This document shows, piece after piece, positions 7,801 through 53,946 of a DNA stretch of 64,000 nucleotides (positions within the stretch are counted from its first letter, which is position 1; the number at the start of each line of letters is the position of its first letter). The notes beneath the pieces were generated by a model. The model ran no database searches. It was not told where the DNA came from and saw nothing but the letters and a program-made list of their open reading frames with translations. The stretch covers positions 77,438,001 through 77,502,000 of the forward strand of contig CM126215.1 in assembly GCA_052327205.1 (NCBI GenBank). Reading direction: 5' to 3'. Position numbers and translations under genes: made by a program. This DNA comes from Somniosus microcephalus. Lineage: Eukaryota.

Positions 7801-8429
7801 AAAATGGCAGGGTGTTAGGAACCTGTGCAGGGAGACAGAGGAAAGGGAAGCAAGGATAGGAGCAAAAGACAGGAAGGAGAAAAGCAAAAGTGGAAGGCAG
7901 AGAAATCAAGGGTGTAAATCAAACAAGGTCACAGTACATAATAATTCTAAAAGGACTAAAAGTGTTAAAAAAACAAGCCTGAAGGCTTTGTGTCTTAATG
8001 TGAGGAGCATTCGTAATAAGGTGGATGAATTAGCTGCGCAAATAGATGTAAACGGATATGATATAATTGGGATTACAGAGACATGGCTCCAGGGCAACCA
8101 AGGCTGGGAATTCAACATCTAGGGGTATTCAATATTCAGGAAGGACAGGCAAAAAGGAAAAGGAGGTGGGGTAGCATTTCTGGTTAAAGAGGAGATTAAC
8201 ACAATAGTAAGGAAGGATATTAGCTCTGATGATGAGGAATCTGTATGGGTAGAGCTGAGAAATACCAAGGGGCAGAAAACGTTAGTGGGAGTTGTATACA
8301 GACCCACAAACAGTAATGCTGAGGTTGGGGATGGCATTAAATGGGAAATTAGAGACACGTGCAATAAAGGCACAGCAGTTACCATGGTGACTTAATCTAC
8401 ATATAGATTGGACTAACCAAATTAGTAAC

Positions 8430-8605
8430 TGTAGTGTCCGTGTGTTGATAGAGACACTGAAGACAGGAGTTGGTTCATAGGTGTTTACTAAGCAAAGTCT
8501 GGAGGGGTACTAACGGATATAACACAATATACAGGCTTATATAGCCCGAGTGGCCATTACCGGCATTACAGCACACATGGGGCTCTTAAAGGCACATACA
8601 CTACA
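8430..8605 (-). repeat. 3' LTR of Gypsy element 1
   Basis: Direct repeat of 13104-13279; no mismatch seen by eye. Confidence 0.97.
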
Positions 8606-8698
8606 ATTCCTCCCCTTTTAGCTAACCAGTACATCATATTTTAAGTAATTATTAATCACATATTATAAGAAAAATAATATACACATTGCTGTAGTTAA

Positions 8699-11600
8699 TT
8701 AATTATAAGTCAGTCTCTCTGGAGGCTTCCTGACTCGGTCCGGATAACGCCTCAGTGGTGTAGTCGTTTCTGGTGGTGTAGTAGGTTCTTTTGGCAAGGC
8801 TGATTCGGCTTGAATGCCAGTGTCGGGTTCATCGGGTTCCAGTATCACTGGATCGGAGGTAGATATGGGTATCTCTACTTCATCGTTAGGCGTATAGAGT
8901 TGTGGTGTAGGTTGTCCCTTTTCGGATGACTCTATGATTTGGTCAGCATGGCGCCTTATTATGCTTTCTCCGATGTCCACGGTATACATCAGTGGTCCTA
9001 GTCGTGTGCAGATAGTTCCAGGCTGCCATTTCTCGGTACGGTAGTCCCGGGCCAAAACTTGTTGACCTATCTGGAAGGTTCTAGTTGGCCTTTCATTCAT
9101 GCCTTGAAACTGCCGGTTCTCCACGTCCCTTCTGATGTTGGGCTTGACCAAATCCAGCCGGCATCTTAGGTTTCTATTGAAGAACATCATGGCGGGAGTT
9201 TGGTTGGTAACCATATGTGTTGCATTCCTGTATGCGAACAAGAAGTTATCCACCTTGTGCTGAAGTTTTATGTCTTCATTACCCATGGCCTTTATGGCCT
9301 TCTTGAAGGTCTGGACAAACCTTTCAGCCAATCCATTGGTGGCGGGATGGTATGGGGCGGACGTGTAGTGCTTAACCCCATTGTTTTTTAAGAACTTCTT
9401 GAATTCTTCGGACACAAATTGCGGTCCATTATCAGAACAGATCTGTTCCGGCAGCCCATTCCTGGCAAATATGGTTCTTAATACTGTGATGGTTTTTTCC
9501 GTGGTGGTGGAGGACATCTTTATTACCTCCGGCCACTTGGAGTGTGCATGAACCGCGATTAAGAACATTGAGTCCATAAATGGACCAGCAAAGTCGATGT
9601 GTACCCTTTGCCAGGGAGATGAGGGCCACTCCCATGGATGTAGAGGGGCTTGTGGTGGAGCGTTTTGGACCTTCTGGCATCCTAGGCAGCTCTTGGTCAT
9701 TTCTTCGATGTCTCCATCGATACCTGGCCACCATACAAACGCCCTGGCTAGGTTCTTCATTTTCACTCCACCCAGATGCCCCTCGTGAAGCTCCTTTAGC
9801 ACTTTATCCTGGAGTTTGGGTGGAATCACCACTCTGGATCCACACATCAAGGTTCCTCGGCACACTGACAGCTGTTCTCTTCTTTGCGAGAATGCTGGCA
9901 ACAGTGGTTCGCCATGTGCTGGCCATCCCTTCACTGTTAAATCGTAGACCCGTGAGAGAGTCGGGTCATTTCTTGTCTCCCTTTCAATGGCAGAATTTAT
10001 TACCGGTAGACATTCCACTATGGTAGAGTGGAACATCTCCACTGGGTCTACTGTAGGTGCCTCTTCTACCGTTGGCAACGGTAGGCGCGATAAACCATCA
10101 GCATTCCCATGCTGTTTTGATCCTTTGTATTCTATGTTGTATTGGTGTGCCCCTAGAAAAAGGGACCACCTCTGTAGCCTTTGCGCTGTCATAATGGGAA
10201 CACCCTTTTTAGGGTTGAATATGGAGATGAGGGGTTGATGGTCAGTCAACAAGGTAAATTTTTGTCCGTGTAGGTAATGGTTGAATTTCTTCACTCCCCA
10301 TACCAGGCTGAGTGCTTCCCTGTCGATTTGGGCATAGTTACGCTCAGCTCAGTTCAATGAGCATGACGCAAAAGCTATCGGCCGTTCCGAGCCATCAGGG
10401 AATTTATGCGATAATACTGCTCCTATGCCGTAAGGGGATGCATCGCACGCCAGTCTGATTGGCAGTGATGGGTTGTAATGAGCCAAAACTTCTTCGGATG
10501 TGATTAAGTCTTTGCATTTATGGAAGGCACGCTTACAGTCTTCATTCCATTTCCAAATTACTCCTGTTTGTAGCAGTTCATTAAGAGGGTGTAGAAGAGT
10601 TGATAAGTTCGGTAAAAATTTATGATAGTAATTTATTAATCCCAGGAACGACCTTAATTGTGAAACATTTTCAGGTGCTGGGGCTTTTATGACCGCTTCA
10701 ATTTTTTCAGGTGACTTATGCAACCCTTCCTTATTTATTATGTGGCCACAATATGATATTTGATTTCGGAAAAATTCGCACTTGGGGCGATTTGTTCGTA
10801 GGCCCCGTTCTCTCAGCCTAGTGAGCACCTGCTCCAAATTGGCACGGTGCTCGCTGTCATTTTCTCCTGTTACAAGGATGTCGTCCAGGTAGCATTGAGT
10901 CCCCGGAATCCCTTGGCGGACTTGCTCCATAGCTCTTTGCCAGATAGCTGGAGCGGATGCTACTCCGAAAACTAGCCGATTGTACTGGTACAGACCTTTG
11001 TGTGTATTTATCGTGAGATATTTTTTAGAGGCCTCTTCAACCTCCATCTGTAGATATGCCTGTGCCAAGTCAATTTTGGTGAAACATTTCCCTCCGGATA
11101 GTGAGGCGAAAATATCTTCTATCCTCGGAAGAGGATACTGTACCGTGTGAAGGACCGGGTTTACCGTCACCTTGAAGTCTCCACAGATGCGAATTTTTCT
11201 CTGTTCTTCAGATTTATCATTATTCAATGCTTTCTTCATGACTGGAACGATGGGTGTTGCCCACTCGCTCCAATCTATTTTGGATAATACGCCTGCATTT
11301 TCCAAATTCTCCAGCTCTGCCTCGACTGCTGGACGAATTGCGTATGGCACTGGTCTTGCTTTAAAAAACTTGGGAATTGCTGCATCTTCCACTTTTATTG
11401 AGGCGGTGATGCCTTTCAAGGTTCCTAGTTTCTCTTGAAACACTTCTTTGGCGTTGGCCAAGATGTCTTTTAATCGTTCAGGTATGATGTCATCATCGTT
11501 TTTTTCTTACTGGTCACCGTCAGTGCCTGAATGGAGTGCCAGTCTAAACGTATTTTCCTGATCCATTCACGTCCTAACAGCGGTGGGCCACCATCTTGTA

Positions 11601-12686
11601 GAATGTATAAATACAACTTTTGTATTTCCTTGCCGTTGTATACAACAGGCACCTTTATTTTTCCTTTGGGGTATACTTTCTGCCCCGTATATGTTTTTAA
11701 GATAATGGATGTGTCTTTTAAAGGTATATGCGGAAATAGCCTCTCATAATCCCGTCGATTTATTACGGCCAGAGCTGATCCTGTATCTAGCTCCATTTTA
11801 ACTGGGGACTCTGCTATCGTGAGGGTAACCCAAATGGTCTGGTAATCATCTTTGGCAAGTACTTTATGTAATTTGAGACAGCTTAGTCTCTTGTTTTTGG
11901 AGTCGCTATCGCTCTTCTGGTCTTTGGAGCTACTTTCCGTCATCATTTGTACCTTTCTGTACTTTTCTTCATTGATTTTTTTTTCCTGTCTGTGGATTTA
12001 TTTTGTCCACATCGGCATACCCGTGCAATGTGTCCAATCTTTCCGCATTGCCTGCATGCTTTGTCCTTGAACCAGCAGTCCCTCTGGTTATGGGTGGATC
12101 TGCCGCAGCGATAACATCTTTCGAAACCCTGTGTCATTTCATGGGTGCCGAAGTCCTGTGTCTTCTGTTGTATCTCTGCAGCTCCTCTTGCTGCTGCTTC
12201 GTATGATACAGCCATACTGAAAGCCTTGTCCAGTGTTAAATCTTTTTCAGAAAGCAGCCTTTTTTGTGTTCCTTCACTTAAGAGACCGCAGATGAATTTG
12301 TCTCGAAGATAATCTGCTAGTCCTGCCCCGAATTGGCAGTGTTTTGATAGCTTTCTTAATTCGGTGAGGTAATCAGCGTTACTTTCATTCTTGTGTTGAT
12401 TTCTCTTGAAGAATTTGAATCATTCTGCTATCAGCAGCGGTGTTGGGTTTAAGTGCTCCTGCAGGGTATCAACAATTTTTTAAAAATCCTTGTCCTTTGG
12501 TTTGGCTGGAGTGATTAAATTTCGTAACAGCCCGTATGCCTTTGCGCCCATTAAATTCAGCAGTACTGAAGCTTTTTTTTCATCTTCTATTCCATTTGCA
12601 GTGCAATATACCTCTACTCATTCCACATATGTGGTCCAATCCTCTATTTCACTATCAAAAGCATCAATATTGCCAGACTTAGGCAT
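8699..12686 (-). pseudogene. gag-pol polyprotein (two CCHC knuckles, protease, RT, RNase H, integrase) with 3 stops and 2 frameshifts
   Basis: CYRCG..H..C and CRQCG..GH..C; LDTGSA; YLDD; CDASPYG; ADGLSR; HHCC; HIDFAG, SDNG, GLAER. Confidence 0.95.
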
Positions 12687-13103
12687 CTTAGAAAAGATAT
12701 GGCGCTTCCCGCGCTTTTCCGCCGCTGCTGCCGATGACAACGCTGTTTCCCGCGGTTTCTGTTCTTTTTTTATTTATTTATTTACAGTTGGAGACTCGTT
12801 CCCGCCGGACTTTCTCTCTAGGTCTGAACGCCGACCTGCTTGCAGCGCCGGCCGTCTCCCGAGTGCTCCCTCCCCGTTTGTTATTGCTTGCCTCTGATTT
12901 CGCTGCTTGTCCCAGCTGTAGAGCCAGCCGCTGGAGCCCCACCCTGACGCCCAGGAAGGATTAGCGCAGTACCTGCCACCAGCTTGGCCAGCTGGTGAAA
13001 CCACAGCTTCTTTCACTTCCTTGAGTCTTCTGGACGCCCGAGGAATCGATGTCCTTGAGGTGCTGCCGAATTGCAGGTAAGTCCGTTTCCACTTCGTCGC
13101 CAC

Positions 13104-13279
13104 TGTAGTGTCCGTGTGTTGATAGAGACACTGAAGACAGGAGTTGGTTCATAGGTGTTTACTAAGCAAAGTCTGGAGGGGTACTAACGGATATAACACA
13201 ATATACAGGCTTATATAGCCCGAGTGGCCATTACCGGCATTACAGCACACATGGGGCTCTTAAAGGCACATACACTACA
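13104..13279 (-). repeat. 5' LTR of Gypsy element 1
   Basis: Direct repeat of 8430-8605, adjacent to the PBS. Confidence 0.97.
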
Positions 13280-34194: not shown

Positions 34195-34504
34195 ATTGTG
34201 AATAGCTGGGGCCCAAGCACTGATCGCTGCGGTACCACACTAGTCACCACCTGCCACCCCAAAAAAGACCCATTTATTCCTACTCTCTGTTTCCTGTCTG
34301 TTAACCAATTTTGAATCCATGCCAGTATATTACCCCCAATCCCATGTGCTTTAATTTTGCACATTAACCTCTTATGTGGGACTTTATCAAAGGCCTTCTG
34401 AAAATCCAAATACACCACATCCACTGGTTCTCCCTCATCTATTCTACCAGTTACATCCTCAAAAAACTTCAGTAGGTTTGTCAAACACGATTTCCCTTTC
34501 ATAA

Positions 34505-37275
34505 CATACAGGGGTATTCAGTATTTAGGAAGGATCGACAAAAAAGAAAGGGAGGAGGGGTAGCATTGCTAGTAAAAGAGGGGATAAATGCAATTGAAAG
34601 GAAGGATATTAACTCAGTTAATACAGAATCTATATGGGTGGAGCTAAGAAATAGCGAGGGGCGAAAAACATTAATAGGAGTGGTATATAGGCCTCCAAAT
34701 AGTAAAATAGAGGTTAGGGAGGGCATCACGAGGGAAATTAGAGAAGCGTGCAATAAGAGCACAGCTGTCATCATAGGTGACTTTAACTTACATATAGATT
34801 GGACTAGCCTAATCAGTAAAAATAATGAGGAGGAGGAATTCCTTGAGTGTTTGAGGGATGGTTATCTGGATCAATATGTCGAGGAACCAACTCGGGAACA
34901 GGCTATATTGGACTGGGTACTGTGCAATGAGAAGGGACTAATCAGTAATCTTGTTGTACGGGGACCCTTGGGTCAGAGCGATCATAACATGATCGATTTC
35001 TCACTCGAAATGGAGAGCGAAGAAATTGACTCAGAGACTAAGGTCCTGAATTTAAACATGGGGAATTATGATGCCATGAGACGGGAACTGAGTAGGTCTG
35101 ATTGGACAACGTTCCTGGGAGGACTGGAGGTAGATAAACAATGGCAAACATTTAAAGATAGAATGACAAAATTGCAAAAATTGTTTATACCAATCTGGCA
35201 TAAAAGGAAATCTAAAAAGGTGACTCAACCGTGGATAACAGGGGAAATTAGAGACAGCATAAAATCCAAAGATAGGGCGTATAAAATAGCCAAAAAAAGC
35301 GCCAGAGCGGAAGATTGGGAACAGTTTAAGATAGAGCAAAGGAGGGCAAAGGGCATAATCAAGAGGGGCAAAATAGCTTACGAAAACAAGCTGGCGGAAA
35401 ATATAAAAACTAACTCCAAAAGCTTTTATAAGTATATCAAAAGGAAAAGACTGGTGAAAACCAAAGTTGGTCCATTGCAGTCAGATACGGGGGAATATAT
35501 AATGGGAAATAAGGAAATGGCAGATCAACTAAATGCATACTTTGGGTCAGTCTTTACGAAGGAAGACACAAAAAACCTCCCTGGGATATCGGGAAAAATA
35601 GGGACATTGGCAAAGGAGGAACTGACGCAAATCAATATCTCTAAGGATATGGTGTTAAGGAAGCTAAAGGGATTGAAGGTGGACAAATCCCCAGGGCCTG
35701 ATAACATGCATCCTAGGGTACTGAAGGAGGTGGCCCTAGAGATAGCGGATGCACTAAGGATGATTTTTCAGAATTCATTAGACTCGGGAACAGTGCCGAT
35801 GGATTGGAGGGTAGCTAACGTTACCCCACTATTCAAAAAGGGGGGTAGGGAAAAAGCAGGTAATTACAGACCTGTAAGCCTTACATCAGTTGTGGGCAAA
35901 ATGCTGGAGTCCATCATTAAGGATGAAATAGCGGAGCACTTAGCAAATGGGGACAGGATAGGACAGAGTCAACATGGATTTACAAAGGGTAAATCGTGCT
36001 TGACTAATCTATTGGAATTTTTTGAGGGAGTAACTGGTAGAATAGATGGGGGAGAGCCAGTAGATGTGGTGTACCTGGACTTCCAAAAGGCCTTCGATAA
36101 GGTCCCACATAAAAGATTAGCATGGAAAATTGAGGCTCATGGGATAAAGGGGAAAGTTTTGGCGTGGATAGGGAACTGGCTGTCAGATAGAAAACAGAGA
36201 GTTGGAATAAACGGCTCATTTTCTGAATGGCAGGCAGTAACAAGTGGGGTACCACAGGGATCTGTCCTGGGCCCCCAGCTGTTCACAATTTACATTAATG
36301 ACCTGGATCAGGGAGTCGGATGCAGCATTTCCAAATTTGCAGACGACACTAAACTAGGAGGGGGGGTGGGCTCAGAGGAAGAGACCAGGAAGCTCCAGAG
36401 CGATTTGGACAGACTGGGCGATTGGGCGGATAAATGGCAGATGCACTATAATGTGGACAAGTGCGAAGTTATCCACCTTGGGTGCAGGAACGGGAGGGCA
36501 AATTATTATTTAAATGGCAATAGATTGGGAGAGGGGGAAGTACAGAGAGACCTGGGTGTTCTTGCACACCAGTCACTGAAGGCGAGCATGCAGGTGCAAC
36601 AGGCGGTCAAGAAGGCAAACGGTATGCTGGCCTTCATAGCAAAAGGGTTAGAATACAGGAACAGGGATACCTTGCTGCAGCTGTACAGGGCACTGGTGAG
36701 ACCACACCTCGAGTACTGTGTACAGTTTTGGTCGCCTCATCTGAGGAAGGATGTTCTTGCCATGGAGGGGGTGCAGCGGCGATTCACCAGGCTGATACCA
36801 GGAATGGCGGGAATGACCTATGAGGAGAGACTATGTAGTTTAGGGATGTACACACTGGAGTTTAGAAGATTGAGAGGGGACCTCATAGAAGTGTATAAAA
36901 TTCTGACAGGTCTAGACAGACTGGATGCAGAAGGAATGTTTCCCTTGGCGGGTGAGAACAGAACTAGAGGACATAATTTAAGGATAAGGGCTAAACCATT
37001 TAGGACAGAGATGAGGGGGAATTTCTTCACTCAGAGAGTGGTGAACCTGTGGAACTCATTGCCACAGAGGGCAGTGTATGCCAGCTCATTAAATATATTT
37101 AAGAGGGAATTAGATATATTTCTACGGGCAAAAGGGGTTAAGGGTTACGGAGAGAAGGCGGGGACGGGATACTGAATTAAAGGATCAGCCATGATCTCAT
37201 TAAATGGCGGAGCAGGCACGAAGGGCCGAATGGCCTACTCCTGCTCCTATCTTCTATGTATCTATGTATCTATGT
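34505..37275 (+). mobile_element. young 5'-truncated CR1 LINE
   Basis: ATAA duplicated at 34501-34504 and 37276-37279; (TCTATGTA)n tail. Confidence 0.95.
34506..37175 (+). CDS. CR1 ORF2 (partial endonuclease + complete RT), uninterrupted but lacking its 5' start
   Basis: Frame open from the insertion boundary to TGA; GGGVA, YRPP, GDFN, SDHN, QGSVLGP, FADD. Confidence 0.9.
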   Translation: MQGYSVFRKDRQKRKGGGVALLVKEGINAIERKDINSVNTESIWVELRNSEGRKTLIGVVYRPPNSKIEVREGITREIREACNKSTAVIIGDFNLHIDWTSLISKNNEEEEFLECLRDGYLDQYVEEPTREQAILDWVLCNEKGLISNLVVRGPLGQSDHNMIDFSLEMESEEIDSETKVLNLNMGNYDAMRRELSRSDWTTFLGGLEVDKQWQTFKDRMTKLQKLFIPIWHKRKSKKVTQPWITGEIRDSIKSKDRAYKIAKKSARAEDWEQFKIEQRRAKGIIKRGKIAYENKLAENIKTNSKSFYKYIKRKRLVKTKVGPLQSDTGEYIMGNKEMADQLNAYFGSVFTKEDTKNLPGISGKIGTLAKEELTQINISKDMVLRKLKGLKVDKSPGPDNMHPRVLKEVALEIADALRMIFQNSLDSGTVPMDWRVANVTPLFKKGGREKAGNYRPVSLTSVVGKMLESIIKDEIAEHLANGDRIGQSQHGFTKGKSCLTNLLEFFEGVTGRIDGGEPVDVVYLDFQKAFDKVPHKRLAWKIEAHGIKGKVLAWIGNWLSDRKQRVGINGSFSEWQAVTSGVPQGSVLGPQLFTIYINDLDQGVGCSISKFADDTKLGGGVGSEEETRKLQSDLDRLGDWADKWQMHYNVDKCEVIHLGCRNGRANYYLNGNRLGEGEVQRDLGVLAHQSLKASMQVQQAVKKANGMLAFIAKGLEYRNRDTLLQLYRALVRPHLEYCVQFWSPHLRKDVLAMEGVQRRFTRLIPGMAGMTYEERLCSLGMYTLEFRRLRGDLIEVYKILTGLDRLDAEGMFPLAGENRTRGHNLRIRAKPFRTEMRGNFFTQRVVNLWNSLPQRAVYASSLNIFKRELDIFLRAKGVKGYGEKAGTGY

Positions 37276-41475: not shown

Positions 41476-42305
41476 TTCCCCCTAGTTCTCCCCGCCTATC
41501 TAGCTCAAATAACCTGTCCACTTAAAAAGAATGTAATCCCTTCATTATTTTAAACATCATAATCGTATCTTCCCCATACAAATCTCCTGTTCCCTAAGCC
41601 TATCCTGATACTTAAGGTCCCATAAACTTGGACCTTTTCCAGAGGTTCAATATCTCCCCTCCCCCACCAGGTGAGTGGACCAAAAATGAACACAGTATCT
41701 AGATGTGGCTGAACCAAAGCCTTGTACCAGGTAAGGATTGTATTTACAGTTTTATATTTAATTGTCCTAGCTATATATCCAACAGTCTATTCGCTTTTGC
41801 AACAACATGGATTACATAGGATATACGGCACCGAAACAGGCCATTCGGCCCAACCAGTACATGCTGGCGTTTATGCTCCACTCGAGCCTCCTCCCGTCTT
41901 TCCTCACCTAACTCTATCAGCGTAACCCTCTATTCCCGTTTCCCTCATATGCTTGTCTAGTCTCCCCTTAAATGCATCTATAATATTCACTTCAACCACT
42001 CCCTGTGGTAGCAAGTTCCACATTCTCACCACTCTTTGGGTAAAGAAGTTTCTTCTGAATTCCCTATTGGATTTCTTGGTGACTATCTTATATTGATGGC
42101 CTCTAGTTATGCTCTTCCCCACGAGTGGAAAGATTCTCTCTGTATCCACTCTATCAAAATCTTTTATAATTTTAAAGACCTCTATTAGGTCACCCCTCAG
42201 TCTTCTTTTTTCAAGAGAAAAGAGACCCAGACTGTTCATCCTTTCCTGATATTTATACCCTCACATTTCTGGTATCATCCTTGTAAATCTCCTCTACACC
42301 CTCTC

Positions 42306-42560
42306 TGTAAAGTCTGTGGGTTGTACAGTTAATAACGACACAGACTTCAGGAATAACAAACAAACAGGTCTTTACTATTCGAAGGTCAGGGCGAATCTGC
42401 CCAAGGAATCATGCCACAACACTTATATACCGGTGTGGTCACCGTCGGTATTACAGTATACAGAAGCCAAACAAGTAGTGCCACACCTAAAGTAGTTCTC
42501 TTAAAGGTGAACGGTTACATACAATAGTTCTCTTAAAGGTAGACGGGTACATACACTACA
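42306..42560 (-). repeat. 3' LTR of element 2
   Basis: Direct repeat of 47323-47577; contains an internal ~32-bp tandem duplication. Confidence 0.97.
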
Positions 42561-42943
42561 ATCCTCCCTTTTTAGCTTATTACATACAGAGTCCCCATTA
42601 AACATAACATATCTTCAACTTCATATAAAACAATTTACAGACATAGTCTCAGTGGGAAACAGTTCACAGGTTCAGTCTCTGCAGGAACAGTTCACAGATT
42701 CAGTCTCTGATCTTGACTCGGTCCGAACAACATCTCTTTGGTGTAGGTGGTTCACATTGCTAGCGTGACTCCTCCATATCCTTTTCTTGACGTAACAGCT
42801 TGAACTTTCGTCCTGCTGAACCAGCAGTGCTGACTTTTACAACAACTGGGTTGCCTTGATATTTTCCTACTTCCCAACTGATTTAACTCCTTTCGTAGGG
42901 TCCACGCATGATCTGGTAGAAGTGATAATATTTGCGATAGTTA

Positions 42944-45900
42944 TCATCCTCTGCTTCTTCTTTTTCTTTTCTGCTTTTTGGAGACTCTCGGGGCTCCCTT
43001 ATCAGCTGCCAGCTGTAGCGCCACCAACTCTCTATGTTCCTTCGACTTTAAGTGCTTCATCCTGATTTCGGCACTTTGGGAGTTTTCATCACAAACTGGG
43101 CAGACCACATCCTCGTAATGTTCAGTGTCACTCAACAGGTCATGGTAATATTCGGGTTCGTCCTGAGTTAGGCCAGCGAGAGGGCCTTCTACTTCCTCCT
43201 TACCCATCTGAACGTTAGCTGACTGTGGTTCCTTCCCTAGACATCTTTCTTGAAAAGACTTCTTCATGCATTCATCTTCATTCCGCTCTTCCTGGGTTTC
43301 CTGCAAATCCTTCACTAATGACCTCATTTGTGATTTCAATACTTCCCCTTCCCTCGGGGATTGATTGATCGGGCTATTCAATCCTTCTACTGGAGCAGCT
43401 GTTTCAACATTCTGTTGTTCACATAGACGCGATTCAGCGTACTTTTGGCATCCCAGTAAAGTCTGTTTTGCAACCTCAGCTATTTCCCAAACTTTTGAGA
43501 GCTCTGAACTCCTTCCCGTTGAAGATTGAAGCTCGTGTTCAGATTGTTCCCATTGCAGAGTCTTTTCCCTCAGCATATGAAGGAGTTGGCTGACTGTTAA
43601 CTCTTCCACGGGAACACTGTGGATCAGAGTCTTCTCCATTTCATCCACCTTTTCCTCCAATGCTTCCACCCTCTGTTCCTCTTGTACTTTGGCTTTCAGC
43701 GCTCGGAAAAGTTGCGCCCTGATACTCTCTAGCTCATGTTCAGGGACCATTCTTACAGTCTCTGTGTTTCTTACAGTTTCCTTTTCTTCCACTGAAAGGA
43801 TTCCCAGTTGAATCTGTTCTTCAAGTTGTTGAACCTCGGACATTGCCGCCTCATATTTGTCTTGGGTTTCCTTCAATATTTTTATGAGTTCTTGGACATC
43901 TTGTCTTTCATGTTCTGCCATGTCTTTCACCTCTAATTTCTCATCTATGGATGGAACTTCTACCGATGAGTCTGTCTTGGCCTTGAGCTCATCAAGAATT
44001 TCCTGCAGCCTTTGGACTTCTTGCTCATGTTCAACCTTTAGTTGTTCATATGCTTCTACTGAAACTAGCTTTTCGGAGGTTGCCGAGTTAACCCCCTCCA
44101 GAATTGTAGCCTGGGCCTGTTCATACTGTTCTTTCAACTTCTCACACTCTGCTTGTAAGGAGTCGTAGAGAAGAACTGGAATAACATCCTGGCTTCCTGA
44201 AGATTCCTCTTCATTTGCTTCTTTCACAATTTCCTGTTGGAGTTCAGCCAAGGCTGCTATGCTATCTGCCTCTCGAAGTCTCACTGCCATCAAATCTTCT
44301 TTATTCTTGCAGTCTATCTCAGCCATTTTCCGATTACTTTCATTTAACTGAGTGAGTAGTCCCTTATTCTGGGCTGAGAGATATTGCACCTTCTCATGTA
44401 GACCATAGCACTCCTTCTCTGCTCGACATAGCTGGTTACTGCTGATTTGGTTCTGTGTTTCAAGTTCCAACATCCTTTGCTTAGCTTCTTTCAGTTTCGC
44501 CCCTATAAGCTCCTCTTGCAACATGACCACATTATTCACATCAGGTAAAGAAGCGTTTCTCTTTTCCATGTCCAAGATTTTTTCCTGCATATCTTTAAGT
44601 GCACACTGCGATTCAGCTTCTCTTAACCTTGCTTGCACTAGCTCCGTCTCCAATTGCAGAACAAAATCCTCAGTGTAGCGTGGTTTGCCTTTATGCTGTA
44701 TCTCTAGATCATGCAAATATTCTAACTCCTGAACATCATAAGGGAGATGTGATCGGTAATTGGTCACGATGGCTCTATGGTCGCTCTTTGCTTGAGCTAG
44801 CTGCCTCTGCTGTCTTTCCAGGTTCTCCCATTCGGTGTCCCAGAACTTTTCCATTGTTTTCATCTCTTGTACGAGACGGTAACCCAACTGTTCTAATTGT
44901 TGTCGTACTTTGAAATAAGTTTGAGTCCGAGTTCGGTGTTCTTCCGTCGTGGATAAGTCCTTAATTTGAACAGGCTCAGAATTCTCTGTCAAACTGGAGT
45001 TCTGCTCTGAAGCTTTATTCTTCTCGGTGGCATAAGCCTTTATGCATGTCTTCGTTTTCTCCACCATAGTCGGCAAGTTCATTTTAGCCTTGTCTTCCAT
45101 ATTTGAGTTGGTCTTATCGTCATCCGTTTCAGAATCTGAGCTGATAGCTTGCACCGAGTCCTCACTCATTATGGCTTTTAGATAGTGCCATTCCATGTCT
45201 ATTTTCTTGATCCACTCTCGTCCTAGAAGTGGTGGTCCTCCCTCAGATAATACGTACAAGTTCATTCTTGGGTGTTCTTTACCCCTATCTCTCACCTTGA
45301 CTCTTATCTTCCCCATGGGGTATACCTTATGCCCTGTGTATGTCTGCAATACGAACTTGGTATTTCTTAAGGGTATGTGAGAGAATAGCCGGTGGTAGTC
45401 TCTTCGATTTATGACTGATAGAGCTGATCCAGTGTCCAACTCCATTCTTACTTGGACTCCAGCTATTTTTAGTATGACCCAGATAGTTTGTAGGTCAGCT
45501 TCCTTACTCACATTGTGAATTCTCAGACTACCCAGCTCCTGGCTGTTTGGGTCTGAGTCTGAATTCTGTTCGTCTGAACTCTTCTCAGCCACCTTGTGTA
45601 CCTTGTTGTACTTTTCTTGTGGTGGCTTCCTTTGGCTGTTGGTCTTCTTCCCTGACTGGCACACCTTAGCGATGTGACCCAGTTTGCCACATTTCCTACA
45701 TTCTTGGTTCTTAAACCAGCATTGATTCTGGTCGTGTGTTGTCTTCCCACAACGATAGCATTTTGTTGTACTTGAGGTAATTTGGTCCACCCCAAGTGCC
45801 GCCGCCTTTAGCTGCATTTCCGCCGTTCCTTTCGCTGCGGCTTCGTGCGATGCGGCTATAAGGACAGCCCTGTCAAGTATGAGGTCGTTCTCTTCGAGTA

Positions 45901-46270
45901 GTCGCTTTTGTGTCCCTTCCTTGGACAATCCGCATACGAACTTGTCTCGCAGTGCCTCTGTCAGATTCCCTCCGAACTGGCAGCATTTCGCTAGCCTACG
46001 CAGTTCGACCAAATATTCCGCGTTGCTTTCGTCTTTCCGTTGCGTTCTTGCATAGAATTTGAATCGTTCAGCCAACATCAATGGTGTGGGGTTCAAGTGG
46101 TCCTTCAGAACAGCCACAATCCCTTCAAAAGTCTGATCCGCCGGTTTAGCTGGTGCTAGTAGATGCTTCAAGAGCCCGTATGTCTTTGCGCCCATCGAGT
46201 TTAGCAATGTTATCGCTTTGTCGTCTTCCTCTATTTTGTTGGCTTCACAATAGATCTCGATGCGTTCCAC
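42944..46270 (-). CDS. chimeric polyprotein: Gag + aspartic protease + EVI5-like + ANKRD24/RAI14-like + optineurin-like + DNAJC21-like segments
   Basis: 1108 open codons; two CCHC knuckles (aa 171-204), LDTGSA (aa 278-283), then host-like coiled coils and a C2H2 finger. Likely true ATG at 46330 is followed by TGA at codon 4. Confidence 0.85.
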   Translation of the reverse strand: MERIEIYCEANKIEEDDKAITLLNSMGAKTYGLLKHLLAPAKPADQTFEGIVAVLKDHLNPTPLMLAERFKFYARTQRKDESNAEYLVELRRLAKCCQFGGNLTEALRDKFVCGLSKEGTQKRLLEENDLILDRAVLIAASHEAAAKGTAEMQLKAAALGVDQITSSTTKCYRCGKTTHDQNQCWFKNQECRKCGKLGHIAKVCQSGKKTNSQRKPPQEKYNKVHKVAEKSSDEQNSDSDPNSQELGSLRIHNVSKEADLQTIWVILKIAGVQVRMELDTGSALSVINRRDYHRLFSHIPLRNTKFVLQTYTGHKVYPMGKIRVKVRDRGKEHPRMNLYVLSEGGPPLLGREWIKKIDMEWHYLKAIMSEDSVQAISSDSETDDDKTNSNMEDKAKMNLPTMVEKTKTCIKAYATEKNKASEQNSSLTENSEPVQIKDLSTTEEHRTRTQTYFKVRQQLEQLGYRLVQEMKTMEKFWDTEWENLERQQRQLAQAKSDHRAIVTNYRSHLPYDVQELEYLHDLEIQHKGKPRYTEDFVLQLETELVQARLREAESQCALKDMQEKILDMEKRNASLPDVNNVVMLQEELIGAKLKEAKQRMLELETQNQISSNQLCRAEKECYGLHEKVQYLSAQNKGLLTQLNESNRKMAEIDCKNKEDLMAVRLREADSIAALAELQQEIVKEANEEESSGSQDVIPVLLYDSLQAECEKLKEQYEQAQATILEGVNSATSEKLVSVEAYEQLKVEHEQEVQRLQEILDELKAKTDSSVEVPSIDEKLEVKDMAEHERQDVQELIKILKETQDKYEAAMSEVQQLEEQIQLGILSVEEKETVRNTETVRMVPEHELESIRAQLFRALKAKVQEEQRVEALEEKVDEMEKTLIHSVPVEELTVSQLLHMLREKTLQWEQSEHELQSSTGRSSELSKVWEIAEVAKQTLLGCQKYAESRLCEQQNVETAAPVEGLNSPINQSPREGEVLKSQMRSLVKDLQETQEERNEDECMKKSFQERCLGKEPQSANVQMGKEEVEGPLAGLTQDEPEYYHDLLSDTEHYEDVVCPVCDENSQSAEIRMKHLKSKEHRELVALQLAADKGAPRVSKKQKRKRRSRG

Positions 46271-46584
46271 GTACGTGGCCCAGTCTTCTATCTCAGAATT
46301 AAAATCGTTAATATTCCCTCACTTAGGCATCTTCCTTTCCTTGGGAGCAGCACAAGTATTTCTTTAAATTCTTATTTATTATTTATTTATTTCTAAGATG
46401 GCGGTTTTTCCCGCGAAAATGGCGGTTTCCCGCTCTTTCCTTCTCTCCCCGCCCCTTCAATGGCGGTCTCCCGCGTCTGTCGTCTTCTCCGCCTAATGGT
46501 GGCTTCCCGCGTTTCTTCCCTGGTGGGAGGGATACGCTTTCCCCACAGCGGACAGGTTCAGCCGCTGGGCTGGCTTCCGCACAG

Positions 46585-46810
46585 CTCCCCTTACTCGGCT
46601 CTGTCTTTCTCTCCCGCTCGCACGGCTCTACCGGCGCTGGGTACCCTGTTCACGGAGAACAGTTCAGCCGCTGGACTGGCTCTCGCGCAGCCTCTCTCCC
46701 CTTGCTCGGCTCTGTCTCTCTCTCCCCCACGTTCGGCTCTACCGGCGCTGGGTACCCCGTTGGTGGAGAACAGTTCAGCCGCTGGACTGGCTCTCGCGCA
46801 GCCTCCTTTA
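46585..46810. repeat. GC-rich tandem duplication, period 111 bp, in the leader of element 2
   Basis: GGAGAACAGTTCAGCCGCTGGACTGGCTCTCGCGCAGCCTC at 46654 and 46765. Confidence 0.9.
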
Positions 46811-47322
46811 GTCGGCTCTGCCTCTCCCACACGCCCGGCTCCCGTTCGCCTCCCAGCCCTCACGCAGTCCGGTGCTTCCCTCCCCGGCTGCGGCTGAGTT
46901 TCTCTCTTCCCGCGCCTGCTCCCGGTCTCAGCGCTTCGTGGCTTCGGTCGCTGCCCGGCTTTTCCCGCCGATCGCGGTCCGGCTATCTCACGACGCCGTC
47001 GGACCCGCCTTCCTGACCAGCTCTGCTCCCCCTCGACCGTGGTCGAGTGAAAACCCCTATCCTCCGGATTTCGTTACACCTTCCCCTACTCACAGTCTCC
47101 GCGGCCGCCTTGTTTCCTGCTGATCGGCTCACTCCGCACCGTGGTAGAAGGGTAGTCAGTGCCTGTTGCTGCTGGAAGCTTTTGTTGCTAAAGTCTTCCT
47201 CCTTTCTATTGCTGCAGCCTCGTGTTTTCTTCCAGCAGAACGACGAGGGCGGTTGCCTCTCTTCGACGCTCTTTAGTTGCTTTGGTAGTCTTGCCGCAGG
47301 GTACGATCGGACTTGTCGCCAC

Positions 47323-47577
47323 TGTAAAGTCTGTGGGTTGTACAGTTAATAACGACACAGACTTCAGGAATAACAAACAAACAGGTCTTTACTATTCGAA
47401 GGTCAGGGCGAATTTGCCCAAGGAATCATGCCACAACACTTATATACCGGTGTGGTCACCGTCGGTATTACAGTATACAGAAGCCAAACAAGTAGTGCCA
47501 CACCTAAAGTAGTTCTCTTAAAGGTGAACGGTTACATACAATAGTTCTCTTAAAGGTAGACGGGTACATACACTACA
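47323..47577 (-). repeat. 5' LTR of element 2
   Basis: Direct repeat of 42306-42560, adjacent to the PBS. Confidence 0.97.
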
Positions 47578-48194
47578 CTCTCCAGTCCCTCTATATCCTT
47601 TTTATAATATGGTGTCCAGAACTGCACGCAGTACTCTAAGTGTGGTCTAACCAAGGTTCGATACAGGTTTAGCATAACTTCCCTACTTTTCAATTCTATA
47701 CCTCTAGAAATAAACCCTAGTGCTTGGTTTGCTTTATTTATGGCCTTGCTAACTTGTGTTGCAACTTTTAATGATTTGTGTATTTGTACTCCTAGATCCC
47801 TTTGTTCCTCTACCCCATCCAGACTCGCACCCTCCAAGTGATAAGTGACCTCCCTATTCTTCCTACCAAAATGTAATACCTCACATTTATTTGTGTTGAA
47901 CTTCATTTGCCAATTATTTGCCCATTCCGCAAGTTTATTAATGTCCTCCTGTAATTTCTTGCAGTCCTCCTCAGTATTGATTATCCCCCCCAATTTGGTG
48001 TCATCTGAAAATTTAGAAATTGTGTTTTTGATTCCAAAGACTAAATCGTTAATGTAAATTGTGAACAGCAGTGGTCCCAGCACTGATCCTGGTGGAACAC
48101 CACTACCCACCTTCTGCCACTGTGAATAGCTACCCTTTACTCCTACTCTCTGCTTTCTGTCCTGAAGCCAGCCAGCAATCCATTCTGCTAGTAC

Positions 48195-50315
48195 GATAGC
48201 AAAATACTGCAGATGCTGGAAATCCGAAATAACAACAGGAAATGCTGGAAAAATTCAGCAGGTCAGGCAACATCCATGGAGAGAAAATAGAGTCAACGTT
48301 TCAGGTCAAACCCTTTGTCAAGACTGGAAAAGCACAGGAAATAAAATAGATTAAAAGCCCGGGCTGGGAGAGAACAAAAGAGAAGTGCAGAGACATTAAG
48401 AGGTATTCAAAACGAGACGAGATGGTGATAGGACTAGTGGAGACAAAAGATGGCTCTAGATTAGGTGTGAAATGTGCTGGCCGAATGGGAGACAGCTGCC
48501 ATGTGGGAGAGAAAAAAAGGTGGGGGGGGGGAAAGGGCCAAAACAAAGGTGTGGATAAAAAATAAGTAAAAATATAATGGGGGCCGAGGTTATGATCTGA
48601 AATTGTTGAACTCGATATTGAGTCCGGAAGGCTATAAAGTGCCTAATCGGAAGATAAGGTGCTGTTCCTCGAGCTTACGCTGAGCTTCTGTGGAACAATG
48701 CAAGAGCCCGAGTACAGTGAGGTCTGAGTGGGAATGGAGCGGTGAATTGAAATGACAGGCGACCGGAAGCTCGGGGTCATCCTTACGACTGAACGGAGGT
48801 ATTCCGCAAAGCGGTCACCCAATCTGCGTTTGGTCTCCCCAATGTAGAGGAGACCACATTGTGAGCAGCGAATACAGTATACTAGATTGCAAGAAGTACA
48901 AGTAAATCGCTGTTTCACCTGGAAGGGGTGTTTGGGGCCCTGGACAGTGGGAAGGGGGGAGGTATAAGGGCAGGTGTTGCATCTCCTGCGCTTGCACGGG
49001 AAGGTGCCGGGCGAAGGGGAAGGGGTGCTGGGGGTGATAGAGGAGTGGACTAGGGTGTCTCAGAGGGAGCGGTCCCTACGGAATGCTGAAAGGGGAGGGG
49101 AGGGGAAGATGCATTTGGTGGTGGGATCACTTTGGAGGTGGCGGAAATGGCGGAGGATGACCCGTTGAATGTGGAGGCTGGTGGGGTGAAAGGTGAGGAC
49201 AAGGGGAACCCTATCGTGGTTCCAGGAGGGAGGGGCAGGTGTGAGGGCAGAAGTGCGGGAGATAGAACGGACACGATCGAGGGCCGTGTCAACCACGGTA
49301 GAGGGGAATCCTCGGTTGAGGAAAAAGGAAGACATGTCGGAAGCACTGGTGTGGAAGGTGCCATCGTCAGAGCAGATGCGGCGGAGATGGAGACACTGGG
49401 AGAATGGAATAGAGTCCTTACAGGAGGCGGGGTGGGAGGAAGTGTAGTCCAGGTAGCTGTGGGAGTCAGTGGGCTTGTAGTGAATGTTGGTTAATAACCT
49501 ATCCCCAGAGATGGAGACGGAGAAGTTGAGGAAGGGAAGGGAAAAATCAGAGATGGACCATGTGAAGGTGAGGGAAGGGTGGAAATTGGAGGCAAAGTGA
49601 ATGAAATTGTCTAGTTCAGGGCGAGAGCAGGAAACGGCACCGATACAGTCATCAATGTACCGGAAAAAGAGGTGAGGGAGGGGACCCGAGTAGGACTGGA
49701 ACAAAGAGTGTTCCACATATCCCACGAAAAGGCAGGCATAGCTAGGACCCATGCGGGTACCCATGGCAACACCTTTGATTTGGAGGAAACGAGTGGAGTC
49801 AAAGGAGAAGTTGTTCAATGTGAGAACAAGTTCAGCCAGGCGGAAGAGGGTAGTGGTGGGTGGGGACTGGTCGGGCCTCTGTTCAAGGAAGAAGCGGAGC
49901 GCCTTCAGGCCACCCTGGTGGGGGATGGAGGTGTAGAGGGATTGTACGTCCATGGTGAAAAGGAGGCGGTTGGGGCTAGGAAACTGGAAACTGTTAAAGT
50001 GGTGGAGGGCGTCTGAAGAGTCGCGGATGTAGGTGGGAAGAGACTAGACAAGGGGAGAAAAGATAGAGTCGAGATAGGAAGAGATAAGGTCGGTGGGGCA
50101 AGAACAGGCTGAAACGATGGGTCTACCAGGGCAGTCCGGTTTGTAGATCTTGGGAAGGAGGTAGAAGCGGGCTGTGCGGGGTTGGGGAACTATGAGGTTG
50201 GTGGCCACGGGGGGAAGATCTCCAGAGGAGATGAGGTCAGTGACAGTCTTGGAAATGGTGGGTTGATGTTTGGTAGTGGGGTCATGGTCCAGGTGGAGGT
50301 AGGAGGAGGTGTCTT
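48195..50315 (-). mobile_element. 5'-truncated Penelope-like element (RT + GIY-YIG endonuclease), disrupted
   Basis: LLPKIYK..PGRPIVS, DVQSLYT, GVAMG, RYIDD (49060-49953); VYCIRC..CGLLYIGETKR (48643-48918). Confidence 0.93.
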
Positions 50316-51213: not shown

Positions 51214-53946
51214 TGTATTGATTTCTTTGTGGGTTCAATGACGAGACATTTATGAAAGAGAATGTCTTTTTAATCTAAAGTCTGTTCAACTCTTTATACA
51301 GCATTTACAGGAGACATCATGCCAGTGATGCATCTAGAACGAAACTGAAACTAAACCAAACTGCTTGTCTCTGTCACATGACCTCTGCTGGTCAGGCATA
51401 AGTAATCAATACCTGCAACTATGCTGGTAAGGCATGATAATCAAACAGGCAAATAACATCACTATTTGCTGATATCATTACATCTCCCTTTCTTAAAACA
51501 AAAGTATTTTACTTTTAACTAACAACATGTTTTCTTTGTATTAATCTGCATTTTAACTGTAACACTTAATGAACTTACATTAACATTATCATTATCAAGG
51601 TTTTTTAACCTTGCTTTGTGTGTTCACATGAAATATGTAAATGCACTAGAACTTGAAGAAAGAATAAGATAACATTACTTCCTTCTATAACAATAGTCCT
51701 TAAATTTGCTCAATGAGTCTCTCAGGAGGCTTCACGCGTCTTGAGGATTTTCTGATTGATTGTCCTTGAATCTGAGTTGTTGCCTCAGATGATGTGTTCT
51801 CAGCTGTGTGATCAGGTTGTTCAACAGTATCAGTCTCTTGACCTGCTGTGGCTGGTCCCATGAGAAGATCTCGGCGATTTCTTCTCAGAACAGCACCCTC
51901 ATCTGTCTGAATGGTGTATGATCTTGGTTGAACTTCACTCAGGACAGTTCCCTTCTGAGTCCATGTGTTTGTTTTGTCTTTGAACCTTACTTGGTCACCA
52001 GTGTGGAGTTCAGGTAGGTTTTGTGTTCCTCTGTCATAGTAGTACTTTTGCTTTTCTTTCTGTTGCTCTTTGAACTTCCTCACTTTCTCCCCCTCTTTTG
52101 TTTTCAGGAGGTTCTCCGGGATGGGTAGGTTTGACCTTAGCATACGTCCCATAAGGAGTTGGGCTGGTGACATACCACACTCGAGCGGCGTTGTGCGGTA
52201 TACAAGCATGCTCTGGTAGAAGTCAGTTCCACTGTCTTTTGCCTTGCACATCAGTCTTTTCACTGTGTTTGCGGGCTCTCCTGGGTCAACAGCTCTGGAC
52301 AACGTGTCTGCTGTATACATCAGCTTACCCGGTGTGTACGCAACATTCAGTTCATCATAGACTGTCTCTCCTTCGCTTTCCACAACGAGGACTCTCTTTA
52401 CCAGGTTCAGTCTCTCACAGGCTTTTAAACCTAGTATGGCTTGCACATCCTTTGGCACCACGATTAATGCTAGCGTGTGCTCTCTGTCCTTGTGTGTTAC
52501 TTTGACAATGCATCTTCCTTTCACTGGTATATCAGTACCTGTGTATCCTGTCACTTTCACTTTTATTCCATGTATCTTTGGTCTGGGTCTAATTTTCTTA
52601 AAATCAGTCTCTGATATCACATTAACTTGTGCTCCAGTATCCAATTTAAATGGAATATGTATGTCATTCACTTTTAGTGTCAACATCCAGTCTCTTTCTT
52701 CTTTTTTGTTTTCAGACACAACATCTACATAGAACTCCTCTATCTCACTTTCATCTACTGTATGGACCTTGCTTTGTTGCGCTTGGTTCTTGCAGCAACG
52801 GGCATAATGGTTGTTTTTGTTGCAACTATTGCATGTTTTACCATATGCTGGACACTTTCTTGGTGTATGCTGTGTACCGCATCGACTACATGACTTTCGA
52901 TTGTCCCTTTCATGTTTGTTCGCTGGCCACGCCTCTTTTTTCACATTGGCGCTCTTTTTGTTAACCGGTTTGTGTCCGTTCATTCTCACTGCATCCACGT
53001 TGCAGCTATTATCACTGAACAGCTCCTTTGCCTGCAACTTCACAGTCTCTGTAGCCCTACACAGTGCTATGGCTTTTCCCAGGTCTAGATCTTGCTCTCT
53101 TAGCAGTCTTTCCCTTAGACCATTATCTGGAATACCACACACCAGTCTGTCTTTTATCAGCGAGTCTGTCAGTCCCCCAAATTCACACGATTTGCTTCGG
53201 TTTCTCAGTTCAGTCACATACTGATCAATAGTCTCACCCGTTTTCTGTACACATGTGAAAAATCTGTGCCTCTCAAACGTCACGTTACGTTTAGGTATGC
53301 AGTAGGCCTCAAACTGTTCCATTATTTTATCTAGCTTCATTTTGTCTCCATCAGCAGCGAATGTGAAGTTATTATACACCTCCAGCGCTTCATCACCCAC
53401 GACATGTAAGAACAGTGACGATTTCCTTTTATTACTTTTCTCGTCAGCTCCGATTGCTGATAAATACAACCCCACACGTTGTTTGAATCTCCTCCAATTT
53501 TCAGCCACATTACCTGTCAACTGAAGCTTCGCCGGTGGGAGTAAACCTTCCATTTTTCACTTCGTTAGCTATTCTCTAATGGTAAGTAACAATGTTCTCT
53601 TTTGGCTTGCTAATTTGTGGAGAGCTGATTTAACTTCAGATTTTTTCTCTTCATCTCTTTCAGCCACTTCTGACACCATGTATTGATTTCTTTGTGGGTT
53701 CAATGACGAGACATTTATGAAAGAGAATGTCTTTTAATCTAAAGCTTGTTCAACTCTTTATACAGCATTTACAGGAGACATCATGCTAGTGATGCATCTA
53801 GAACAAAACTGAAACTAAACCAAACTGCTTGTCTCTGTCACATGACCTCTGCTGGTCAGCCATAAGTAATCAATACCTGCAACTATGCTGGTAAGGCATG
53901 ATAATCAAACAGGCAAATAACATCACTATTTGCTGATATCATTACA
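51214..53946 (-). mobile_element. internally deleted Gypsy LTR retrotransposon (element 3)
   Basis: LTRs 51214-51482 and 53679-53946 (about 5 substitutions + 1 indel by eye), TSD CACTC, PBS TGGTGTCAGAAGTGG (tRNA-Leu-like), PPT AAGAAAGGGAGA. Confidence 0.96.
51700..53553 (-). CDS. Gag-protease fused in frame to the RNase H tail and integrase C-terminus (617 aa)
   Basis: CSRCG..H..CPA..CNSC..NHY..C; LDTGAQ; YTPGK..ADTLSR; YRTTP...SPAQLLMGR; RRNRR; no YxDD. Confidence 0.9.
   Translation of the reverse strand: MEGLLPPAKLQLTGNVAENWRRFKQRVGLYLSAIGADEKSNKRKSSLFLHVVGDEALEVYNNFTFAADGDKMKLDKIMEQFEAYCIPKRNVTFERHRFFTCVQKTGETIDQYVTELRNRSKSCEFGGLTDSLIKDRLVCGIPDNGLRERLLREQDLDLGKAIALCRATETVKLQAKELFSDNSCNVDAVRMNGHKPVNKKSANVKKEAWPANKHERDNRKSCSRCGTQHTPRKCPAYGKTCNSCNKNNHYARCCKNQAQQSKVHTVDESEIEEFYVDVVSENKKEERDWMLTLKVNDIHIPFKLDTGAQVNVISETDFKKIRPRPKIHGIKVKVTGYTGTDIPVKGRCIVKVTHKDREHTLALIVVPKDVQAILGLKACERLNLVKRVLVVESEGETVYDELNVAYTPGKLMYTADTLSRAVDPGEPANTVKRLMCKAKDSGTDFYQSMLVYRTTPLECGMSPAQLLMGRMLRSNLPIPENLLKTKEGEKVRKFKEQQKEKQKYYYDRGTQNLPELHTGDQVRFKDKTNTWTQKGTVLSEVQPRSYTIQTDEGAVLRRNRRDLLMGPATAGQETDTVEQPDHTAENTSSEATTQIQGQSIRKSSRRVKPPERLIEQI

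Follow-up and report, generated by a model that had tools for sequence, protein, structure and literature searches.

The element described here belongs to a family of non-autonomous Gypsy retrotransposons that has very probably captured host RNAs, at least three of them circular, through template switching of reverse transcriptase (RT), with cargo that would be mostly filler. It lies on the minus strand (positions 42306-47577) of the 64,000-nt stretch of DNA that was analyzed, hereafter the window, to which all coordinates refer. The genome of the window (G000) comprises 6.4 Gb, and the closest proteins of the element's reading frame are from sharks. This frame of 1124 codons (46318-42947, minus strand) is located between two 255-nt LTRs and leads from Gag and protease, without a break in phase, into spliced host exons in the order STK10/SLK, ANKRD24, EVI5, ANKRD24, optineurin, and a DNAJC21-like gene.

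The ends of the element are those of a Ty3/Gypsy retrotransposon. The 5' LTR (47323-47577, minus strand, TG...CA) differs at one position from the 3' LTR (42306-42560, minus strand), and the internal region is bounded by a primer-binding site (PBS) of the TGGCGAC type (47313-47322, minus strand), which we take to be tRNA-Ser-like and which is the same in sister copies, and by a polypurine tract (PPT; 42561-42572, minus strand). The insertion is flanked by a 5-bp target-site duplication (TSD; 42301-42305, mate at 47578-47582), within the 4-6 bp of this group, and its target is presumably a CR1-like LINE, judging by its translation. In 20 fetched copies, 14 had parsable ends and six did not; TSDs match in 13 of the 14, and the LTR pairs of the 14 show one to eight differences. 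Gag, with its CCHC knuckles, and an aspartic protease occupy 45168-46330 (minus strand), with an omega of 0.12-0.20 between subfamilies. Of the retroelement domains, Pfam matched only the CCHC knuckle and the aspartic protease in the element and found no RT, RNase H, or integrase; older element types keep merely an RT stub and an integrase tail. The relatives are Gypsy-like by domain order, and the list of open reading frames contains no env-sized frame between the LTRs, which separates the element from retroviruses and ERVs. It is thus a young, non-autonomous Ty3/Gypsy LTR retrotransposon and not an autonomous Gypsy. In the window copy, codon 4 is an in-frame stop, which prevents translation of the full protein from that ATG. 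Scans of the window for tRNAs and Rfam families gave no useful match.

Downstream of the protease, the cargo segments follow one another on the minus strand. STK10/SLK-family exons (44799-45167; Pfam PKK; host G000:C8:167.19 Mb) form the first part of a putative one-lap circle capture. Then come ~10 nt from the end of ANKRD24 exon b, spliced to exon c, which is complete at 66 nt (44729-44804). The end of exon c is joined to 17 nt from the start of exon a, a large exon that lies upstream in the gene (44712-44728), and this places a back-splice junction at 44729/44728. The next segment is a full lap of what is read as a five-exon, 678-nt EVI5 circle with a later in-frame deletion of 192 nt (44226-44711; back-splice junction 44696/44695), after which ANKRD24 exon a continues (43600-44225). 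The remains of a colinear, spliced six-exon optineurin capture (43193-43606) lead into a DNAJC21-like C2H2 finger and a basic tail that ends at the stop codon (42944-43192; Pfam zf-C2H2_jaz; host G000:C1:4.79 Mb, two exons matched). Beyond the stop lies a decayed non-coding remnant, with approximate boundaries 42780-42940, that corresponds to the closing part of the STK10 lap and has an omega of 1.0-1.4 and one shared stop in 45 codons. A homologue search with residues 385-532 of the frame and two ESM Atlas searches returned no useful match; these residues were identified instead by Pfam and the host locus.

The segment at 43600-44225 had been proposed in a sequence-only reading to be a captured coiled coil of the ANKRD24/RAI14/UACA family, with the exact paralogue left open. 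This assignment is borne out: the peptides quoted in its favor lie at residues 699-906 of the 1124-codon frame, and their match is family-specific rather than one of low-complexity coiled coils (79% amino acid identity to a shark "ankycorbin", E 1e-83). The paralogue can now be named. One exon of the host, at G000:C13:62.86 Mb, gives an ungapped alignment with the segment (96.0% over 626 nt; 94% at the protein level), whereas the two host paralogues on C2 and C27 reach 24-25% amino acid identity and no real DNA match. Since turtle and lungfish proteins named ANKRD24 also match the C13 gene best, as judged by BLAST only, the donor is ANKRD24. The same reading had described the peptide ETVRNTETVR as a small in-frame duplication; the peptide is there, but since the same residues are encoded in the host exon, it was inherited from the host and not made in the element. 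What the earlier account did not include is that the segment is one of five cargoes, that ANKRD24 is split by an EVI5 insert, that its exon order is non-colinear, and that the family exists in thousands of copies.

All five host donor genes were placed in the G000 genome. For the STK10 and DNAJC21-like hosts, splice-anchored patterns gave one match each and none in the control; the choice of STK10 over SLK, the gene name DNAJC21, and the host exon numbers used below are our own assumptions. Each of the five cargoes is free of introns and joined at the splice sites of the host, which indicates that the capture templates were RNA, and intronless host exons stand in place of the internal open reading frame, as in LTR-mediated retrocopies. 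All six identified cargoes are in sense orientation and in their native frame. Four of the five cargoes in the window lineage are coiled coils, and the jaz-type zinc finger of the DNAJC21-like cargo has decayed. Identity to the host drops with the age of the capture: in the window lineage it amounts to 72-84% for STK10, 81-90% for optineurin, 78-85% for DNAJC21, 96% for ANKRD24, and 94-98% for EVI5, while STK10 and optineurin in older subfamilies are still 96-99% identical to the host. One host optineurin exon (G000:C17, ~85.885 Mb, L137-L138 region) is one base out of frame compared with the element copies and with the proteins of other sharks, possibly owing to an assembly error.

Three of the five cargoes, ANKRD24, EVI5, and STK10, contain back-splice junctions that are exact at donor and acceptor, with the end of a downstream exon joined to the start of an upstream exon. 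Such a non-colinear junction at exact splice sites is the mark used by Dong et al (2016). Judged by these junctions in element DNA, the templates of all three were very probably circular RNAs (circRNAs), of 1245 nt (STK10), 1743 nt (ANKRD24), and 678 nt (EVI5), all multiples of three. The optineurin and DNAJC21 captures are colinear and therefore uninformative on circles. In ANKRD24, the element passes from the end of exon b through the whole of exon c to base 1 of exon a, which lies upstream in the gene; a 23-mer across this junction has 3,189 exact genomic copies and none in the control, a number that is a floor for the copies carrying it. In EVI5, the fifth exon of the circle contributes its last 16 nt, which are joined to the first base of the first exon with a microhomology of 1 nt at the mRNA level, and the insert ends on the base that precedes its starting point, which is exactly one lap. 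This closure involves no lost or doubled base in either donor or target in all 20 fetched sister copies.

The STK10 circle was recognized from its two ends. In optineurin-bearing elements, STK10 begins inside a large exon and, after the optineurin insert, resumes via an upstream exon and runs back to the same 14 nt. This return predicted, before any were seen, older elements with the junction that optineurin had overwritten. A search pattern built on the half-exon of the host that had been overwritten matched 994 times, the host itself among them, and not at all in the control, and the predicted junction (presumably exon-12 end to exon-8 start) is present in 12 of 12 fetched older copies, in one with a loss of 4 nt. 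Two of these 12 retain a near-complete STK10 lap. At the switch points of optineurin, ANKRD24, and STK10, microhomologies of ~6-14 nt are found; the EVI5 switch lies one base off its 6-of-7 look-alike, an offset that a simple homologous switch does not predict.

The order of capture is STK10, optineurin, DNAJC21, ANKRD24, and EVI5, with later captures overwriting parts of earlier ones, and the stages survive in the genome. Elements with the STK10 lap only were found. For the optineurin stage, 20 of 71 matches were fetched; all 20 carry an optineurin exon junction, none the ANKRD24 junction, and two have DNAJC21 added. Further stages are a deletion intermediate, elements with ANKRD24 and no EVI5, and elements with both. 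In a gag tree of 22 real copies, the ANKRD24-bearing elements form a clade (100/100) with the EVI5 types nested inside it (100/99); the older stages, which are recombinant, are not resolved by the tree as nested. One ANKRD24-bearing, EVI5-less element (L057:2071-6962, G000:C13) lies antisense inside intron b-c of ANKRD24, the intron of the captured circle. The 20 fetched of the 40 best copies are 96.6-98.8% identical to the window copy. First-look counts of 23,780 (optineurin) and 902 (DNA query) are not used as copy numbers, since 15,363 candidates from a coiled-coil control boiled down to three matches, and a density estimate (three elements in 443.7 kb) was rejected as biased. A search of 50% representatives yielded 159 matches; the 10 named among them comprised nine ordinary host genes and one unnamed entry, and no chimeric element like that of the window in another species.

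Sister lineages carry other cargo. Titin-like I-set (Ig) domains, up to ~3.5 of them and in frame, occur at seven of 12 loci (L144, L147, L148, L150, L151, L153, and L154), and an insert of ~150 residues with a CxxC...H motif follows the protease at six of the 12 (L143, L146, L148, L150, L153, and L154), for which neither Pfam nor the Atlas gave an identity. Polybasic C-terminal tails have two origins: older types derive theirs from the integrase tail (ORF ends in L033-L052), and the window type from the DNAJC21-like exon (42947-42990).

A candidate for the missing enzymes is present in the window itself. At 8428-13279 (minus strand) lies a pol-bearing Gypsy element with the order PR-RT-RH-IN, identical 178-nt LTRs, and a 5-bp TSD; it is broken by stops, and its family is very abundant (143 scored RT matches at 96-97% amino acid identity). 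It has LTR start, PBS type, and PPT type in common with the cargo element, and over 236 nt it matches the tail of one such element at 90% identity, which points to recombination and therefore to co-packaging. Its gag is only 66% identical to that of the cargo element at the nucleotide level, which makes it a candidate helper and not the parent; a search for the exact autonomous parent returned only this 66% relative. Another member of the Gypsy family at 51700-53556 (minus strand) has gag-protease joined directly to the C-terminal part of integrase by an internal deletion, with no host cargo seen. The other neighbors in the window are what we take to be a Harbinger-like transposase (444-1514), a nearly whole CR1-like LINE ORF2 of 899 residues (34476-37175), and a Penelope-like RT fragment (49060-50043).

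The family is transcribed. In two RNA runs from organism B, possibly a relative, 16,939 of 16.65 M reads (X23) and 11,101 of 14.40 M reads (X24) fall on the element stretch at a likeness of at least 92% and cover all 30 bins; these reads pool subfamilies and some host mRNA. Gag read depth equals cargo depth. X23 is strongly one-stranded and, assuming a library of the usual type, sense, and X24 covers both strands. The EVI5-less joint is present in RNA and in DNA, and the runs of three organisms contain half or more of the element's words. A variant with a 150-nt in-frame deletion (44354-44505) occurs in RNA (X23, X24) and in DNA contigs (X1).

Selection on the cargo was assessed in 20 copies, picked for near-identity to the window copy, against the host exons, so that part of the differences falls on the host branch. 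Across 641 cargo codons, 177 changes are shared, and no shared stop is observed where 8-10 are expected. With a ts/tv ratio of 4, the cargo omega is 0.81 (p 0.25), compared with 1.00 for singleton changes at the same setting, and shared and singleton changes do not differ significantly (Fisher p 0.57). The uncorrected omega of 0.51-0.53 (p 0.0005 for 0.53) takes no account of transition bias and was therefore dropped as the principal value; in view of it and of the values for STK10 and ANKRD24 cargo (0.36-0.63; ANKRD24 0.37-0.53), weak selection on residues is conceivable. Overall, it looks as if the frame rather than the domain is selected and the residues are near-neutral. Against a strict need for the frame, only nine of the 20 near-identical copies are open beyond 1100 residues, and three of nine loci (L063, L065, and L067) share a frameshift just after the EVI5 lap, yet have been amplified. 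This frameshift is an A-run right after the lap, ends the frame at ~730 residues, and might be a slippery site.

These observations are consistent with the following mechanism. The element keeps Gag and protease and would borrow RT and integrase from a pol-bearing relative. Within the particle, RT would leave its template at short stretches of similarity, continue on host RNAs packaged alongside, and then return, and at least three of the template RNAs (STK10, ANKRD24, and EVI5) would have been circular. Because RNase H would destroy the template behind RT, a circle could be copied for one lap at most, which would explain the exact one-lap inserts; we consider this limit reasonably probable. 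The first capture would have replaced RT-RH-IN in frame, with later ones overwriting parts of earlier ones. The cargo would be translated filler that keeps a single Gag-Pol-like frame open toward the 3' end, and the open frame would serve RNA stability or translation-coupled packaging. We are slightly inclined to see the cargo as such frame-keeping filler and not as working host domains.

The non-colinear exon order could also have come from linear templates, by backward jumps of RT on mRNA, by trans-splicing, or from tandemly repeated exons in the host genes. The exon ends have (C)AG|G in common, a short microhomology that in ANKRD24 is maybe ~4 nt, other origins of non-colinear junctions are a stated concern in PMC4897178, and the fetched EVI5 locus excludes a 32-kb part. 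This origin is nevertheless very improbable, as three genes are independently exact at both donor and acceptor, and for EVI5 alone only 15 of 25,276 in-frame backward jumps would run from boundary to boundary (chance ~6e-4). Moreover, two inserts close at their own start, and the exons appear single-copy in the fetched host stretches. We also weighed whether the long open frame and its transcription mark a host gene domesticated from Gag, a possibility that deserves next to no weight and is refuted at the window locus: the copies are dispersed in their thousands with LTRs and TSDs, they contain private stops, and the window copy has the stop at codon 4.

The captures could have been the same and the cargo could work as protein, giving the element an edge over its helper, with coiled coils and the C-terminal basic patch aiding oligomerization, trafficking, or nuclear entry of the Gag polyprotein. 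Optineurin and EVI5 are Rab/vesicle adaptors, and the sense orientation and native frame of all cargoes, the prevalence of coiled coils, the twofold origin of a basic tail, and the lower omega of the STK10 and ANKRD24 cargo all agree with such a function. It is rather unlikely in view of the non-significant omega after ts/tv correction and the Fisher test, and cargo has been repeatedly overwritten, sister lineages hold titin-like Ig domains instead, the zinc finger has decayed, and a truncated subfamily was amplified. Less probable again is a role at the nucleotide level, in which resemblance to host genes shields the element by raising the cost of silencing it through small RNAs, and new captures restore this protection as older cargo diverges. 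A precedent has been proposed in maize (10.1101/777037), the family is abundantly transcribed, and older cargo that fell to 72-84% identity was serially replaced by cargo 94-98% identical to the host; however, a shield leaves the absence of fixed stops and the native frames unexplained.

The route by which circRNAs are retrotransposed was left open by Dong et al (PMC4897178), and the shark family suggests how they re-enter genomes. Three events inside the responsible machinery, with switch points, one-lap geometry, and intermediates, turn this into a testable mechanism, and the junctions indicate which circRNAs existed in the shark germline. A bolder and tentative extension, to which we give somewhat less than even credence, is that circRNAs are the preferred capture substrate of LTR elements and supply one-lap, phase-symmetric cassettes that build a translated Gag-protease-cargo polyprotein with a replicative edge. 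If true, this would be a Pack-type, circRNA-fed engine of exon shuffling and a fossil record of ancient circRNAs. Thousands of transcribed fragments of STK10, optineurin, ANKRD24, and EVI5, 94-98% identical, have been added to the genome; they will mimic gene-family expansion in annotations, confound circRNA calling, and could feed small-RNA cross-talk with the donor genes.

Acutely transforming retroviruses are a familiar parallel: they are defective and helper-dependent, and their gag continues in frame into host exons where pol would be. Unlike these, the shark element is of the Gypsy lineage, lacks env, and spreads in the germline, and its cargo is without catalytic domains and near-neutral in sequence. 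In plants, maize Bs1 is a non-autonomous LTR element with three host-gene segments and a chimeric open reading frame that is transcribed and translated (review PMC13317346); the account there speaks of three donors and mentions no circular templates, whereas the shark family has five donors in one lineage, more in its sisters, and living intermediates. In animals, Tan et al (2016; PMC5131818) described pieces of host mRNA that replace internal open reading frames of LTR elements, with template switches at ~6 bp of microsimilarity, multi-gene chimeras, and further non-autonomous cycles, all as in the shark family. Their examples are young individual retrocopies, and their main text uses neither "circular" nor "circRNA"; the shark family differs in its thousands of copies, its serial captures in frame to a conserved Gag-protease, and its back-splice junctions. 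LTR-mediated capture, as in Bs1, and circRNA-derived pseudogenes are thus already known, separately. In the literature searched, which lay outside subscription journals and Repbase/Dfam, we found no earlier report of the shark family, or of any LTR family that repeatedly captured circRNAs in frame and amplified them.

The closest precedent for the circles is the work of Dong et al (2016; PMC4897178) on circRNA-derived pseudogenes, such as those of mouse circRFWD2 with 33 high-confidence copies, whose mechanism was called mysterious. In both systems, a circular template is recognized by a non-colinear exon junction, LTR sequence is present, being enriched in the flanks of the pseudogenes, and dozens of copies exist. 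The shark circles are deduced from junctions in element DNA, and the supplements of that study may hold detail at the level of elements. Compared with its main account, the shark circles stand apart in that they sit inside an intact LTR element, in frame and three times over, with exact one-lap closure and microhomology at the switch points.
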